Positions 13,910-18,212 of a stretch of DNA of 64,000 nucleotides are shown one piece after another. This DNA is from an uncultured Candidatus Saccharibacteria bacterium (GTDB lineage Bacteria; Patescibacteriota; Doudnabacteria; UBA920). The notes below the pieces were generated by a model, which ran no database searches, was not told the origin of the DNA, and worked only from the letters and a program-made list of their open reading frames with translations. Both the position numbers and the translations under genes were made by a program. The stretch lies in assembly GCA_964600695.1 (NCBI GenBank), contig CAZRKK010000002.1, positions 5,354 to 69,353 on the forward strand. The letters run 5' to 3'. Each line of letters opens with the position of its first letter. Position 1 is the first letter of the stretch.

Positions 13910-16468
13910 ATGCCTTTTGGATTTGAACTCAATACTGTAATTTATGCATCACTACTACTAGGAATTTTAGTAGTAGTGTTTTTGCTTGTCGCTGCTTATT
14001 ATATTCACAGGCATTGGTATTACAGTCATGTCATTTTACCCCGCACTAAAGAGTGGGTGTTTTTGGAAATTCAAATGCCAAAAGACAACAGCGAGGATAA
14101 AGAAAAATATCAACGCGATGAAGAAAAAAAATTACTAATTGGTATTGCCGAGCAATTATTCACAACTTTATCAGGAATTAGTCACACTAATTGGTTTTGG
14201 CAACCTAAAGAATATATAAGTTTTGAAATTGCGTGTACAGACAAAAAGATTTCCTTTTATATCAATTGTCCGCGTAAGCTTCAGGAGCTAATAGAAAAAC
14301 AAGTTCAAGCTCAGTACCCTCACGCTTTTATCGAGGAGATTAAAGGCTATAATCCCTTTCCAGAAACTGGGGAGATCGAAGCTACCGAGTTAAGATTGAC
14401 CAAGCCTTATATGTATCCTTTTCGTACTTACAAGAGTATGGAAACAGATCCATTGAATGCGTTAACAAACGCTATGTCAAAACTGAGCGATGGTGATGGG
14501 GCGGTTATTCAAATGATTTTGTATCCAGCAGGGGATCACTGGCAGCATCGTCCGCGGCACATGGCTTTAGAAATTCAGCAAGGTAAAAATCCGAACATTG
14601 TTGCCAAGAGTGCGTTTGGAAGATTTGCGCGCGAGGTAGGAAGCACAGCTAAGGATGGTGTCTTAGGTGGAACTCAGTTAAGTAAAGATCAAATGCAACA
14701 ACGTACCGATTTGTCGGGACGTTATTCGGCCATCAACTTAACTCCGATGCAACAAGACATGGTTAAGCGTTTCGAAGAAAAAGCTAGCCGCCCAGGCTTC
14801 TATACCAACATTCGTATTGTCACAGCATCACCAACTCCTGGAACAGCTAAAGTGAATATGCATAATTTAGTGTCTTCATTTTTGCAGTACAACATGCCGC
14901 CGTTTAATGGTTTTAGAGTTAAGCGTCGTGCTAAGAAGCGTATTATTAAAGATTATATTTTTAGAATTTATCGCCGCTACGGACGTAAGTCTATTTTAAA
15001 TACCGAAGAATTAACTAGTATTTGGCATCTTCCGACTCCATTTTTGGAAACACCTAATATTAAATGGTTGTTATCTAAAAAAGCTCCACCACCTATAAAC
15101 TTGCAACCAGAAGGAATATTACTAGGCCGAAATATATATCGTGGGCAGGAGACACCAATTCATATGGCACGTGATGATCGTCGTCGTCACATGTATATTT
15201 TGGGACGTACTGGTGTGGGTAAAACCGAAATCATGAAATACATGTCCGTTCAAGATATCAAGAACGGTGATGGAATTTGTATTATCGATCCTCATGGTGA
15301 TTTTATTGAAGATGTTTTACCTCACATTCCAAAAGAACGAGCCGAAGATGTAATCTTATTTGACCCATTCGATACCGACAGGCCGATGGGTTTGAACATG
15401 CTCGAAGTCACTAGTGAAGGTCAAAAAGATTTTGCTGTTCAAGAAATGATCTCTATCTTTTATAAATTAGTTACAGATCCTGCGATGCTTGGACCTATGT
15501 TCGAGCACAACATGCGTAATGCCATGCTAACCTTAATGGCTGACGAAGAAAATCCTGGAACTATTGTTGAAGTCCCACGTATATTTACGGACACTGAATT
15601 CCAAAAGTATAAAGTCTCTAAATTAAATGATCCTGTGGTAAGAGCATTTTGGGAGAAAGAAATGGCCAAGACTTCCGATTTTCATAAGTCGGAAATGTTA
15701 GGTTACTTAGTTTCTAAAGTAGGCCGCTTTGTAGAAAATTCCATGATGCGAAATATTGTTGGTCAACCAAAGAGTTCTTTTAACTTCCGTGATATCATGG
15801 ATAACAAAAAAATTCTTTTGGTGAATTTAGCAAAGGGTAAAGTAGGGGAGGTGAACGCAAAATTAATTGGCTTAATTTTAGTGAGTAAAATTCAAATGGC
15901 GGCATTGTCCCGTGCAGATATTCCAGAAAGCGAACGCCAAGATTTCTATTTATATGTTGATGAATTCCAAAACTTTATTACCGATGCTTTTTCTTCTATT
16001 TTGAGCGAAGCCCGTAAGTATCGATTGAATTTGATTATTGGTCATCAGTTCTTAGCTCAGTTGGGGCAAGCAGCTGGTGCGCAAGGTGCAGCTAGTAACG
16101 ATTTACGTGATGCTGTGTTTGGTAATGCTGGTAGTATGGTAACTTTCCGTATTGGTGTAGAAGATAGTGAAGTTATGGCAAAGGAGTTTGCACCAACTTT
16201 TAATGAGTTTGATTTATTAAATGTCGATAGATTTAATGCTTTTGTAAAGTTGATGATTAATGGAACAGCCAGCAAACCATTTAACATGGCCACATACCCC
16301 TTAGCTAAACCAACTGAAGATCAAAAGAAGACAGGGGATGCTATTCGACAGTTATCAAGGTTAAAATTTGGTCGTCCACGGGCCGAAGTTGAAGCAGAAA
16401 TCCTAGAAGCCAGCCAAGTTGCTGATATGATGGCGGCTGGTCCAGGGAGTATCGAGAAAACGGTTTAA
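13910..16468 (+). CDS. N-terminally membrane-anchored P-loop NTPase (852 aa). Most similar in motif pattern to conjugative coupling proteins (TraD/TrwB/VirD4, AAA_10 / T4SS DNA-binding type) or HerA/DUF87-like ATPases.
   Basis: One N-terminal TM helix. Walker A ILGRTGVGKTE (~aa 432). ICIIDPHGDF motif. Walker B-like LYVDEFQNF (~aa 680). C-terminal region Gln/Ala/Gly-rich. Confidence 0.55.
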   Translation: MPFGFELNTVIYASLLLGILVVVFLLVAAYYIHRHWYYSHVILPRTKEWVFLEIQMPKDNSEDKEKYQRDEEKKLLIGIAEQLFTTLSGISHTNWFWQPKEYISFEIACTDKKISFYINCPRKLQELIEKQVQAQYPHAFIEEIKGYNPFPETGEIEATELRLTKPYMYPFRTYKSMETDPLNALTNAMSKLSDGDGAVIQMILYPAGDHWQHRPRHMALEIQQGKNPNIVAKSAFGRFAREVGSTAKDGVLGGTQLSKDQMQQRTDLSGRYSAINLTPMQQDMVKRFEEKASRPGFYTNIRIVTASPTPGTAKVNMHNLVSSFLQYNMPPFNGFRVKRRAKKRIIKDYIFRIYRRYGRKSILNTEELTSIWHLPTPFLETPNIKWLLSKKAPPPINLQPEGILLGRNIYRGQETPIHMARDDRRRHMYILGRTGVGKTEIMKYMSVQDIKNGDGICIIDPHGDFIEDVLPHIPKERAEDVILFDPFDTDRPMGLNMLEVTSEGQKDFAVQEMISIFYKLVTDPAMLGPMFEHNMRNAMLTLMADEENPGTIVEVPRIFTDTEFQKYKVSKLNDPVVRAFWEKEMAKTSDFHKSEMLGYLVSKVGRFVENSMMRNIVGQPKSSFNFRDIMDNKKILLVNLAKGKVGEVNAKLIGLILVSKIQMAALSRADIPESERQDFYLYVDEFQNFITDAFSSILSEARKYRLNLIIGHQFLAQLGQAAGAQGAASNDLRDAVFGNAGSMVTFRIGVEDSEVMAKEFAPTFNEFDLLNVDRFNAFVKLMINGTASKPFNMATYPLAKPTEDQKKTGDAIRQLSRLKFGRPRAEVEAEILEASQVADMMAAGPGSIEKTV

Positions 16469-16593: not shown

Positions 16594-17064
16594 ATGTATA
16601 AAAACTCGTTGGTCATGAAGATGATCCTAACGTTTGCGGCCTTTAGCGCCGTCGTTGTATTCCTGAACTACGTGGTCGGCATGCCGACTACTAAGCGCAT
16701 GAACTTCGTCTTGATGAGCTATGGTGTTGGTTCGGCCACCATCTTGGCTCTCGCGGCCGTTTTTCCGAGCCGTCTGACATCGGCGCTGTGCCGTCTTGTG
16801 CAGATTGGTTGGGCAGTGGCCATCGTTCTCGGTGGTTTTGCTATGATTATTATCATTGTGGTTGGTTTGGGGCAGTTTAACCTGCCGTTCCTATCGCTAC
16901 AGTGGTATAGCCTGTTCATGGCTTTAGGAATCTTGGGGGCCAGCGTGTTCATGTTTGTCAACGACTCGTATTTTGAAGTCGTTAACGAATATGAAAGCAA
17001 AGCTGGGAAGCCTAAGGTGGTGACACCGCCGGCAAACAGCACTTCGTCGAGCGTTTCGGCATAG
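16594..17064 (+). CDS. Small 4-TM integral membrane protein (157 aa) encoded with atypical GC/CpG-rich codons.
   Basis: SD GGAGGA at 16578-16583. Four hydrophobic helices. Hydrophilic Ser/Thr/Pro tail. Codons tcg/ccg/gcg/ctg dominate, unlike the rest of the window. Confidence 0.5.
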   Translation: MYKNSLVMKMILTFAAFSAVVVFLNYVVGMPTTKRMNFVLMSYGVGSATILALAAVFPSRLTSALCRLVQIGWAVAIVLGGFAMIIIIVVGLGQFNLPFLSLQWYSLFMALGILGASVFMFVNDSYFEVVNEYESKAGKPKVVTPPANSTSSSVSA

Positions 17065-17091
17065 AAACTCCGCACAAGGGTTAGAAGTATT

Positions 17092-17128
17092 GGGTAAGAG
17101 CGAAAATATTCGCTTTTACCCTTTTTTT
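17092..17128 (+). terminator. Rho-independent terminator after cassette 1.
   Basis: gggtaagagcgaa aatatt cgcttttaccc hairpin plus ttttttt. Confidence 0.55.
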
Positions 17129-17169: not shown

Positions 17170-17198
17170 TTGACAAAACATCAAAAATAGTGTATACT
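17170..17198 (+). promoter_or_regulatory. Consensus sigma70 promoter TTGACA-17-TATACT with an extended-10 TG for GC-rich cassette 2.
   Basis: ttgaca at 17170-17175, 17-nt spacer ending agtg, tatact at 17193-17198. Confidence 0.5.
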
Positions 17199-17233
17199 GT
17201 TACTTAAACTAAATATTGGTTAGAAAGTGAATT

Positions 17234-17277
17234 ACCTTCAGAAATTCAGATTTATCGAGATATGGTTTTCTGAAGGT
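17234..17277 (+). promoter_or_regulatory. 11-bp perfect inverted repeat (ACCTTCAGAAA / TTTCTGAAGGT) forming a stem-loop in the ~185-nt 5' leader of cassette 2.
   Basis: Arms at 17234-17244 and 17267-17277 with a 22-nt loop. Three further short hairpins follow (17276-17293, 17303-17326, 17331-17346) before SD AAGGAGG at 17366-17372. Confidence 0.35.
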
Positions 17278-17385
17278 CATGCACGTGTATGACTGTTGTA
17301 GCGCTGTAAATAAAAAAACAGCATTGTAACGGTCAATCACATGACCAAGTTTTCAAAAACAGCCTAAGGAGGGCTAATCAATACT

Positions 17386-18102
17386 ATGCAGAAATTCATT
17401 ATTTCGTTCGTTTTTGTCGCAATGTCACTTATGGCTGTTTCGTCGGCCTCGGCCCAGAATCCGGACTTGAACGTTCCGGTGCCTTCGGGAAAGACGCAGA
17501 CCACGAAGAGCCCGGACTTGAACGTTCCGGTGCCTAACAAGTCGGTTCAAAGTTCGGCTAACGTCTATAGGACGTACCGCAACACTACGGTCGTTAAGAA
17601 GTATTCCATGAACGGCGTCGACAAAGACGCTCGTGAAGTGAATGTCGCTCAGGACATTCGTATAAAAAAACTGGAAGACGGCAAGGCTAACTCGTCGGAC
17701 GTCGAAGCAGGATTTAAGTCGGTTGACGATCGTTTCGCGGCTAAGGATCAGGTGGATGCACGACAGGACCGAGAGCTCGGATATACTTTCTGGGCTTTCA
17801 TAATCATCCCGGTAGTCTTTCTGGTTCTGGCGTTGTTGTACTTCATGTTTGGAGGCAACAATAATAACGTTCAGGTTAACGGTGGTGGACATGCACCGGC
17901 ATACGTACCTCAGGCCCAGCCTGCAGTACAGCCGATACCATACTACCAGCCTATTCCTGCACAACCCGTTCCTGCGGCACAACCGGTTCCTGCAGCCAAC
18001 CAACAGCCAAGCGTAAATGTTCCGATCAATATTGCGGTCGAGCCGATTCAGATCGATCTCCGACCGTCGTTGCGTGGAACACCGCCGGCACCCGCTCAGT
18101 AG
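17386..18102 (+). CDS. Secreted or bitopic membrane protein (238 aa): signal peptide, duplicated PDLNVPVP motif, one TM helix, proline/glutamine-rich C-terminal tail. GC/CpG-rich codon usage.
   Basis: MQKFIISFVFVAMSLMAVSSASA-QN signal peptide with an AxA site. TM FWAFIIIPVVFLVLALLYFMF. Tail is PAxQP repeats. Confidence 0.55.
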   Translation: MQKFIISFVFVAMSLMAVSSASAQNPDLNVPVPSGKTQTTKSPDLNVPVPNKSVQSSANVYRTYRNTTVVKKYSMNGVDKDAREVNVAQDIRIKKLEDGKANSSDVEAGFKSVDDRFAAKDQVDARQDRELGYTFWAFIIIPVVFLVLALLYFMFGGNNNNVQVNGGGHAPAYVPQAQPAVQPIPYYQPIPAQPVPAAQPVPAANQQPSVNVPINIAVEPIQIDLRPSLRGTPPAPAQ

Positions 18103-18120
18103 TGAGCATCTCTCTTACAG

Positions 18121-18150
18121 AGAGCAAGGTAAAACTTGCTCTCTTTTTTC
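18121..18150 (+). terminator. Rho-independent terminator after cassette 2.
   Basis: agagcaagg taaaa cttgctct hairpin plus ttttttc. It is preceded by a ctctct tac agagag hairpin. Confidence 0.55.
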
Positions 18151-18212
18151 ATTTTTATAAAAAATAGTGGTATAATTAAAACAACTTTAAATTGTTAATT
18201 CGAAACAAAAAT

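Follow-up and report, generated by a model that had tools for sequence, protein, structure and literature searches.

The leader and its transcription unit

The window, a stretch of 64,000 nt, is chromosomal DNA from a bacterium of the Patescibacteria, or candidate phyla radiation (CPR), with a GC content of about 39%. It carries, among others, a ribosomal-protein cluster and genes for SecY, a VirD4/TrwB-like ATPase (13910-16468), a 162-aa membrane protein, a 238-aa secreted protein, a 1204-aa protein, GtrA, and DnaX. The gene for the 238-aa protein (17386-18102, + strand) follows a predicted leader of about 181 nt (17205-17385). This leader is a selected, evolutionarily maintained, folded + strand RNA that is specific to its gene. 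Three of its helices are supported by covariation: the hairpins P1 and P2, and a small hairpin at the Shine-Dalgarno (SD) sequence.

A near-consensus promoter lies on the + strand at 17170-17198. It contains a -35 box TTGACA (17170-17175), a 17-nt A-rich spacer, and a TG-extended -10 box (GTG)TATACT (17193-17198), and TTGACA-17-TATACT matches the consensus at 11 of 12 positions. The promoter predicts a transcription start near 17205. Upstream, a + strand terminator at 17092-17128 (a 13-bp stem at 17092-17121 and a T7 run), which is also kept in the related loci L001-L003, sets the transcription unit of the leader apart from the 162-aa membrane-protein gene. Downstream, a predicted + strand terminator at 18119-18152 ends the monocistronic unit; within the leader itself (17199-17385), no + strand terminator was found. 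With its own promoter and terminators on either side, the gene at 17386-18102 is a separate transcription unit, and the leader of about 180 nt that the first-pass annotation of this DNA had counted from a start near 17205 is confirmed in its outline. The same annotation considered such a length atypical. The other strong promoter matches in the window, which give leaders of 0-72 nt, agree with this view, but two weaker matches give leaders of 177-204 nt.

From its predicted 5′ end, the leader contains a conserved sequence motif AAACTAAATATT (AAAYURAAUAUK, 17206-17217), P1 (17227-17284), P2 (17290-17335), an A/U-rich single-stranded linker AAGUUUUCAAAAAC (17347-17360) that joins the folded domain to the ribosome-binding site, and the SD hairpin (17361-17375), all on the + strand. 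Overlapping the 5′ motif is the + strand segment UUGGUUAG (17216-17223), which is present only in close relatives of the window and is not a family-wide feature. This segment can pair with UGACCAA (17342-17348) as the outer helix P0 of the minimum free energy (MFE) fold, with the 5′ motif, or with the spacer between the SD sequence and the start codon (17374-17383).

A folded RNA conserved before one gene family

The leader contains a perfect inverted repeat of 11 bp that encloses a 22-nt loop (ACCTTCAGAAA at 17234-17244 and TTTCTGAAGGT at 17267-17277), as first reported, and three shorter inverted repeats. These are GTCAT/ATGAC (17276-17280 and 17289-17293), GCTGT/ACAGC with an A-rich 10-nt loop (17303-17307 and 17318-17322), and GGTCA/TGACC (17331-17335 and 17342-17346). 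GTCAT/ATGAC has 2 nt in common with the 11-bp repeat, so the two cannot both form in full. Folding of 17205-17400 gives an MFE of -55.3 kcal/mol, compared with -34.5 ± 3.6 kcal/mol for 200 dinucleotide shuffles, none of which is as stable (z = -5.77). The leader is therefore far more stable than shuffled sequence, in line with its first-pass description as highly structured. The MFE fold comprises an extended P1, the long hairpin P2, an outer helix UUGGUUA/UGACCAA, and the small SD hairpin. While all of the shorter repeats occur where they had been placed, neither the MFE fold nor covariation supports four separate small hairpins: the second and fourth are an alternative pairing of the same bases, and the third is the tip of P2.

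P1 is a 19-pair hairpin, GUGAAUU-ACCUUCAGAAA-UUCA ... UGG-U-UUUCUGAAGGU-CAUGCAC, that includes the 11-bp repeat and carries an apical loop of variable length and sequence. P2 is the hairpin UGACUGUUGUAG-C-GCUGU (loop) ACAGC-A-UUGUAACGGUCA, whose tip, P3 (17303-17322), corresponds to the GCTGT/ACAGC repeat. Both hairpins are found by MFE folding and by covariation. In four members (L006, L087, L092, and L010), the tip of P2 is replaced or deleted and its base GAYYG/CGGUC is retained. Throughout the family, the helix tips are variable or deletable, and almost no change is seen in the helix bases or in the junction (GUGAAUU, AGGUCAUGCAC, UGAYCG...CGGUC, GACY). The leader is thus modelled as a folded 5′ domain of two hairpins of about 20 pairs each, P1 and P2, which an outer helix sometimes closes.

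Homologous leaders were drawn from contigs that encode a relative of either the 238-aa protein or its 1204-aa neighbour, and from 80 genome loci with a VirD4-like gene. The related contigs are metagenome-assembled genomes (MAGs) labelled Candidatus Saccharibacteria, Candidatus Doudnabacteria, or Patescibacteria group. They yield 15 distinct leaders (the window, L089, L001, L088, L002, L003, L004, L006, L087, L092, L019, L096, L094, L095, and L010) from one lineage, seven of which are close relatives. Each of the 15 immediately precedes a member of the same gene family. The promoter string TTGACAAAA-N4-6-A.ATAGTGTATACT precedes each of the 14 leaders whose contig extends that far, the contig of L088 beginning within the string. 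The 5′ motif AAAYURAAUAUK follows the -10 box by 7-8 nt in 13 of the 15 members and takes a looser form in L004 and L095. In L095, the upstream neighbour differs and the promoter, leader, and gene are still together, so these three move as a unit.

Covariation supports the fold in two alignments. When 11 leaders are aligned with MAFFT without structural information, 93.4% of the cells in P1, P3, and the SD hairpin are paired and 10 of 22 pairs have changed on both sides; none of 500 shuffles performs as well, and slid partners pair at 36-49%. In an alignment of 14 leaders that was fitted to the model, and is by construction biased towards it, 94.4% of the cells pair and 17 of 44 pairs (52 cells) show changes on both sides; with slid partners, pairing drops to 35-44%. 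Seven of the 19 pairs of P1 have changed on both sides in this second alignment. The compensatory changes of P1 include CCUUCAG/CUGAAGG in the window, CCUACAG/CUGUAGG in L004, and CCUGAGG/CCUCAGG in L094 and L095. In P3, GCUGU/ACAGC becomes GUCAU/AUGAC in L004, and in the SD hairpin, AGCCU/GGGCU becomes GGCCU/GGGCC in L006, GGCU/GGCC in L087, and GGCC/GGCC in L094. The first-pass annotation would have given up its reading had homologous leaders lacked conserved structure and covariation; both are present.

Covariance models score the reverse strand at 33-34 bits, as opposed to 217-235 bits for the leader strand. G-U wobble pairs are frequent in the helices, which together with the low reverse-strand score identifies the structure as + strand RNA.

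The leader is also better conserved than the four-fold degenerate sites of the genes beside it. Its identity to the window is 0.90 in L002, 0.96 in L003, and 0.80 in L004, and the corresponding four-fold-site identities in the flanking genes are 0.54-0.61, 0.60-0.64, and 0.43-0.53. The regulated protein of L004 is only about 47-56% identical. A leader identity so far above that of four-fold sites indicates that the leader is under purifying selection while its gene evolves quickly. Conservation above synonymous sites and compensatory changes in the stems together mark it as a functional structured RNA leader.

Searches of the 80 VirD4-like loci with two covariance models (R1 and R2) found no leaders other than the syntenic members. 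The roughly 70 remaining VirD4-like loci have different downstream genes and lack the leader, and covariance-model searches of the window and about 1 Mb of related loci turned up no further copy. As to the search that the first-pass annotation had proposed for this leader before other genes, here and in related genomes, it accompanies a single gene family only in the loci covered. An exact-pattern scan of JGI metagenome contigs gave two matches, both due to chance, with no similarity beyond the pattern, and a scan of IMG/VR, likewise for exact patterns only, gave none. A BLAST search against phage records found no match, and the leader is not phage-related.

One marginal covariance-model match, in L022, was rejected as a member; it is a different, shorter leader with only the promoter type and the 5′ motif in common. 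In this more distant relative, the region just after the VirD4-like gene (L022:8640-8795) contains the same promoter type, a close variant of the 5′ motif (GTTATTTCAAAATAAATATTGG), one hairpin, and GGAGGG, and it precedes an unrelated gene of 306 aa. The promoter-proximal 5′ motif may be more general than the leader itself. The region that follows the VirD4-like ATPase is a variable slot with entirely different gene sets among relatives (L007-L084).

The regulated protein has a signal peptide, one transmembrane (TM) helix, and a Pro/Gln-rich tail. It contains a conserved VVKKYxMNGxDxxAR segment, and a low-confidence model predicts a long helical region running into the TM helix. Single-sequence and profile searches found only eight relatives and no Pfam domain, and the AlphaFold model (pLDDT 48.8) is too poor for fold searches. 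Between the window and L001, amino-acid identity is 91% for the regulated protein and 97-100% for the VirD4-like, membrane, and 1204-aa proteins; at four-fold sites it is 0.81 in the regulated gene and 0.92-0.94 in its neighbours. To judge from these comparisons, the faster evolution of the secreted protein may point to diversifying selection or recombination acting on a surface protein.

The GC content at third codon positions (GC3) is 0.56 in the regulated gene (17386-18102) and 0.64 in the upstream membrane-protein gene (16594-17064), compared with 0.25-0.40 in the other window genes checked, including those for ribosomal proteins, and with about 0.3 over the remainder of the window taken together. 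GC3 is raised in 8 of 10 homologous loci examined, among them L002, L004, L019, L092, L094, L095, and L096; it is weaker in L006 and absent in L010, and synonymous sites are saturated. This enrichment could reflect selection on mRNA stability, tuning of translation speed, or foreign origin. The high GC3 creates long spurious minus-strand open reading frames (ORFs) at 16719-17075 and 17425-18003. Public gene calls are also misled by the leader, within which the called start of L087 lies (L087:1278). In L089 (1555-2374), L090, and L091, an intact 238-codon ORF is split into calls of 84 and 164 aa; the apparent gene split in L089 is a gene-caller artefact.

The translation start and the complementary tetramers

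The SD hairpin AGCCU-AAGGA-GGGCU (17361-17375, + strand) covaries and has an energy of -5.2 kcal/mol in the window. Across the family it has 4-6 bp and energies of -3.6 to -6.9 kcal/mol. It displays the SD sequence AAGGAGG (17366-17372) with AAGGA in its loop, and only the last two G of the seven SD bases are paired. The probability that AAGGA is unpaired is about 0.9-1.0 in most members and about 1.0 in the window, where that of the AUG is 0.79. The predicted hairpin is identical in all alternative folds of the 5′ domain. With an accessible SD sequence and AUG, the default state looks ON, as expected of a stabilising leader and not of a repressing switch. GGAGG and ATG 17386 are separated by 13 nt. 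This distance is indeed long, as first remarked, but it is not a fixed feature, since it ranges from 5 to 15 nt across the family.

Clear SD sequences precede only about 3 of the 62 + strand genes in the window (684, 1517, and 17386), and none of the ribosomal-protein genes has one. In a genome where such sites are nearly absent from the window, a perfect SD sequence displayed by structure is itself exceptional. The other two clearly SD-led genes, 684-1406 and 1517-1966, are adjacent, have no Pfam domain, and possess their own promoters, leaders of about 25 nt, and canonical SD sequences at 9 nt. A terminator-like site on the minus strand (17376-17360) is simply the SD hairpin read in reverse complement, with a T-run that is not conserved in L006.

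Four tetramers of the + strand RNA are mutually complementary in all 15 sequences. X1 (17275-17278) and X2 (17331-17334) are GGUC in 15 of 15. X1′ (17291-17294), which follows the pattern GA(C/U)(C/U), is GACU in the window and GACC or GAUC in other members, and it pairs with X1 or X2. X2′ (17343-17346), which follows G(A/G)C(C/U), is GACC in the window, GACU in L087, and GGCC in L096, and it pairs with X2, X1, or a 5′-terminal GGUC/GGUU. Every substitution in X1′ and X2′ keeps pairing through G-U wobble. The pairing X1:X1′ is the GTCAT/ATGAC hairpin, X1′:X2 is the base of P2, and X2:X2′ is the GGTCA/TGACC hairpin.

These pairings define three folds. Fold A has two small hairpins (X1:X1′ and X2:X2′), fold B has the long P2, and fold C has X1:X2′ around P2. 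The three lie 0-6.6 kcal/mol apart in every member, and the MFE topology differs between members. Because the tetramers barely vary, covariation does not distinguish folds A, B, and C. A fifth complementary segment occurs near the 5′ end as GAGGUCA in L019 and L096, GGGUC in L006, GGUCA in L092, and UUGGUUA in the window clade, and in the predicted folds it can close the folded domain. The tetramers suggest a possible refolding of the 5′ domain.

A further pairing connects the 5′ end with the start region. UAUUGGUUAG (17213-17222) is complementary over 10 bp to CUAAUCAAUA (17374-17383), which lies in the spacer between the SD sequence and the AUG (-9.9 kcal/mol, a value reached by 1.3% of shuffles). 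L088 retains the pairing with the help of wobbles; it is weaker in L001, L002, and L003, and outside the closest relatives it is missing. It was rejected as a family feature because it is significant only in the closest relatives of the window.

Function and relation to known leaders

The preferred reading, which carries the most weight of those considered but falls a little short of an even chance, is that the leader is a gene-specific cis-acting element that lends stability to the strongly expressed mRNA of an envelope protein and sets how it is translated. The transcript would start at the near-consensus promoter and form a monocistronic mRNA for a secreted, membrane-anchored envelope protein. 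The leader would act in cis and largely constitutively. Its stable 5′ domain would protect a heavily used mRNA from nucleases that depend on the 5′ end or on AU sites, and the linker and loop-displayed SD sequence would set an efficient, fixed translation start. Regulatory input might be added by refolding of the complementary tetramers. Such a constitutive role in stabilisation and translation fits the data at least as well as the riboswitch, thermometer, or protein-binding leader that the first-pass annotation had proposed. A functional structured RNA is indeed present; it matches no Rfam family, no SD-hiding platform or terminator is seen to be coupled to its alternative folds, and the SD core is unpaired. 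The raised GC3 would also fit selection for fewer AU-rich cleavage sites and a durable mRNA, although other explanations exist.

Several observations weigh against a purely stabilising role. Classical stabilisers need a stem within a few nucleotides of the 5′ end. In the window, about 22 nt of the predicted transcript precede P1 (which starts at about +23), and a helix closer to the 5′ end (a hairpin of the 5′ motif, or P0) is predicted in some members only, through weaker, non-conserved pairings. Simple stabilisation leaves unexplained both the near-invariance of the junction (GUGAAUU, GGUCAUGCAC) and that of the GGUC/GACY tetramers and the 5′ motif, which fit specific recognition or refolding better. 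High abundance of the product is presumed, and confidence in its predicted structure is low (pLDDT 48.8).

The main rival is a regulated switch, a new riboswitch-like element or one responsive to a protein or small RNA, in which a factor at the conserved junction selects among the tetramer pairings and alters the translation or decay of the envelope-protein mRNA. This is possible, though less probable than a stabilising role. It accounts for sequence invariance better than a stabiliser does, given that X1 and X2 are GGUC throughout and all changes in X1′ and X2′ keep wobble pairing. The small energy differences among folds A, B, and C, the different MFE topologies of the members, and a core conserved at helix bases and junction with variable tips, as is typical of aptamers, also speak for it. 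The pairing of UAUUGGUUAG with X2′ or with the spacer CUAAUCAAUA in close relatives might relay a signal to translation, but the second of these pairings is not conserved beyond them. Against a switch, the leader serves one gene family in one narrow lineage, without a second copy in the window and about 1 Mb of related loci, and it has no Rfam match. The alternative folds all leave the predicted SD hairpin unchanged and no terminator lies within the leader, so there is no evident expression platform, and the gene is non-metabolic, so no ligand suggests itself. The more specific proposal of an undescribed class of Patescibacteria switch, in which the junction binds a metabolite, protein, or small RNA and re-pairing of the tetramers tunes production of the surface protein, is rather improbable.

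An RNA thermometer, in which the small SD hairpin would melt with temperature and gate translation, is very unlikely. A conserved, covarying hairpin of 4-6 bp (-3.6 to -6.9 kcal/mol) does overlap the SD sequence, but it pairs only the last two G and leaves AAGGA unpaired with a probability near 1. It matches neither ROSE nor fourU, and the sources are environmental MAGs in which the gene belongs to neither heat shock nor virulence. A thermometer would also leave the 140-nt conserved upstream domain unexplained.

Equally unlikely is a DNA operator, in which the palindromes would bind a dimeric transcription factor that acts, downstream of the promoter, as a roadblock. In its favour are the perfect 11-bp inverted repeat, the repeated GGTCA..TGACC half-sites, and a conserved motif at +2 to +13 whose distance from the -10 box is constant. 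However, the stems change by compensatory substitution instead of retaining their sequence, many of their G-U pairs exist only in the + strand RNA, and the reverse strand scores far lower. The GGTC-GACC spacers also vary, from 8 to 13 nt in the first pair and from 4 to 8 nt in the second.

Least probable of all is that the leader forms part of an attenuator or leader-peptide system, or that a small RNA gene of its own happens to lie there: small ORFs are present (MVF* at 17262, a 16-codon ORF at 17280, and a 43-codon ORF on the minus strand), but L003 has ATA in place of the start codon, close relatives differ by frame-breaking indels of 2, 4, and 10 nt, comparison with relatives found no conserved small ORF on either strand, and since 17199-17385 holds no + strand terminator, transcription should enter the gene.

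Whichever of these roles it has, a leader before a fast-evolving secreted protein, beside the gene for a VirD4-like type IV coupling protein, offers a handle on post-transcriptional control in Patescibacteria. A 2024 review names riboswitches in this group only as a possible future genetic tool, and full-text searches of the literature yielded no described cis-acting RNA regulator from Patescibacteria. The same unit holds two further oddities, an SD site of a kind that is rare in the window and a GC3-rich coding sequence. If the leader only stabilises, an unusual organism has adopted a commonplace solution, which might be put to use as a strong expression cassette in the emerging genetics of CPR bacteria. 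If it is a switch, it would represent a new class of regulatory RNA. Cultivated relatives of these ultrasmall bacteria live as epibionts on other microbes, and a switch could link host contact or nutritional state to surface remodelling.

Among described RNA families, none of the 4227 models of Rfam 15 matched the window or 10 homologous loci at gathering score, and none matched the window at permissive thresholds. The Rfam scan suggested by the first-pass annotation thus returned no family; the best sub-threshold matches, at about 20 bits, are to unrelated microRNA and small nucleolar RNA models. The leader resembles translational riboswitches and orphan Rfam cis-regulatory leaders in its covarying, multi-helix domain within the 5′ untranslated region (UTR), its variable tips, its conserved junction, and its closely spaced alternative folds. 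It has the covarying structured domain of a riboswitch but neither a match to a known class nor recurrence before several functionally linked genes or across a wide phylogeny. Unlike riboswitches, it is confined to a single gene family in a narrow lineage, and it shows no visible link between the alternative folds and the SD sequence or a terminator, and no candidate ligand.

Other regulatory leaders agree in single features. In the canonical CsrA/RsmA site, which overlaps the SD sequence, a short hairpin stem carries a GGA in its loop, and CsrA targets usually contain at least two GGA motifs. The SD hairpin similarly has a short stem and a 5-nt loop that exposes A-AGGA, but this GGA is the only one in the leader. 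Like ROSE and fourU thermometers, the leader has a short, weak hairpin that overlaps the ribosome-binding site; unlike them, it holds the SD core in a loop and not against a U-rich strand, and it carries a large extra domain upstream, without a family match. An attenuator would contain a terminator and a conserved small ORF, both of which are missing from the leader. Autogenous control of the ribosomal-protein type is also not indicated, as the product carries a signal peptide and a TM helix and has no Pfam domain.

The closest likeness is to the leaders that stabilise mRNAs for envelope proteins. The 5′ UTR of E. coli ompA is one of two cases. The other is provided by the S-layer mRNAs of Lactobacillus, which owe half-lives of 14-15 min to long structured 5′ UTRs (PMC3666127). 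The leader of the window differs from both in having no sequence or Rfam relationship to them and in placing its first stable stem away from the predicted 5′ end. Its junction and four tetramers are also conserved far beyond the needs of a passive stabiliser, and stability and abundance are inferred here. In common with the slpA leaders of Lactobacillus acidophilus and L. crispatus and with ompA, it is a long (130-200 nt), strongly folded leader that follows a strong promoter. As in slpA (PMC3666127) and ompA, it precedes the gene for a secreted surface or envelope protein, it keeps the SD sequence accessible downstream of the fold, and it is specific to its gene and not part of a regulon. The window has the long folded leader, strong promoter, and envelope-protein gene of an ompA/slpA-type stabiliser, with a high expression level that is presumed, and its ribosome-binding site is open, with AAGGA and the AUG unpaired at about 1.0 and 0.79. 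The leader belongs to no described RNA family and, by analogy, may work like the known leaders of envelope-protein mRNAs.

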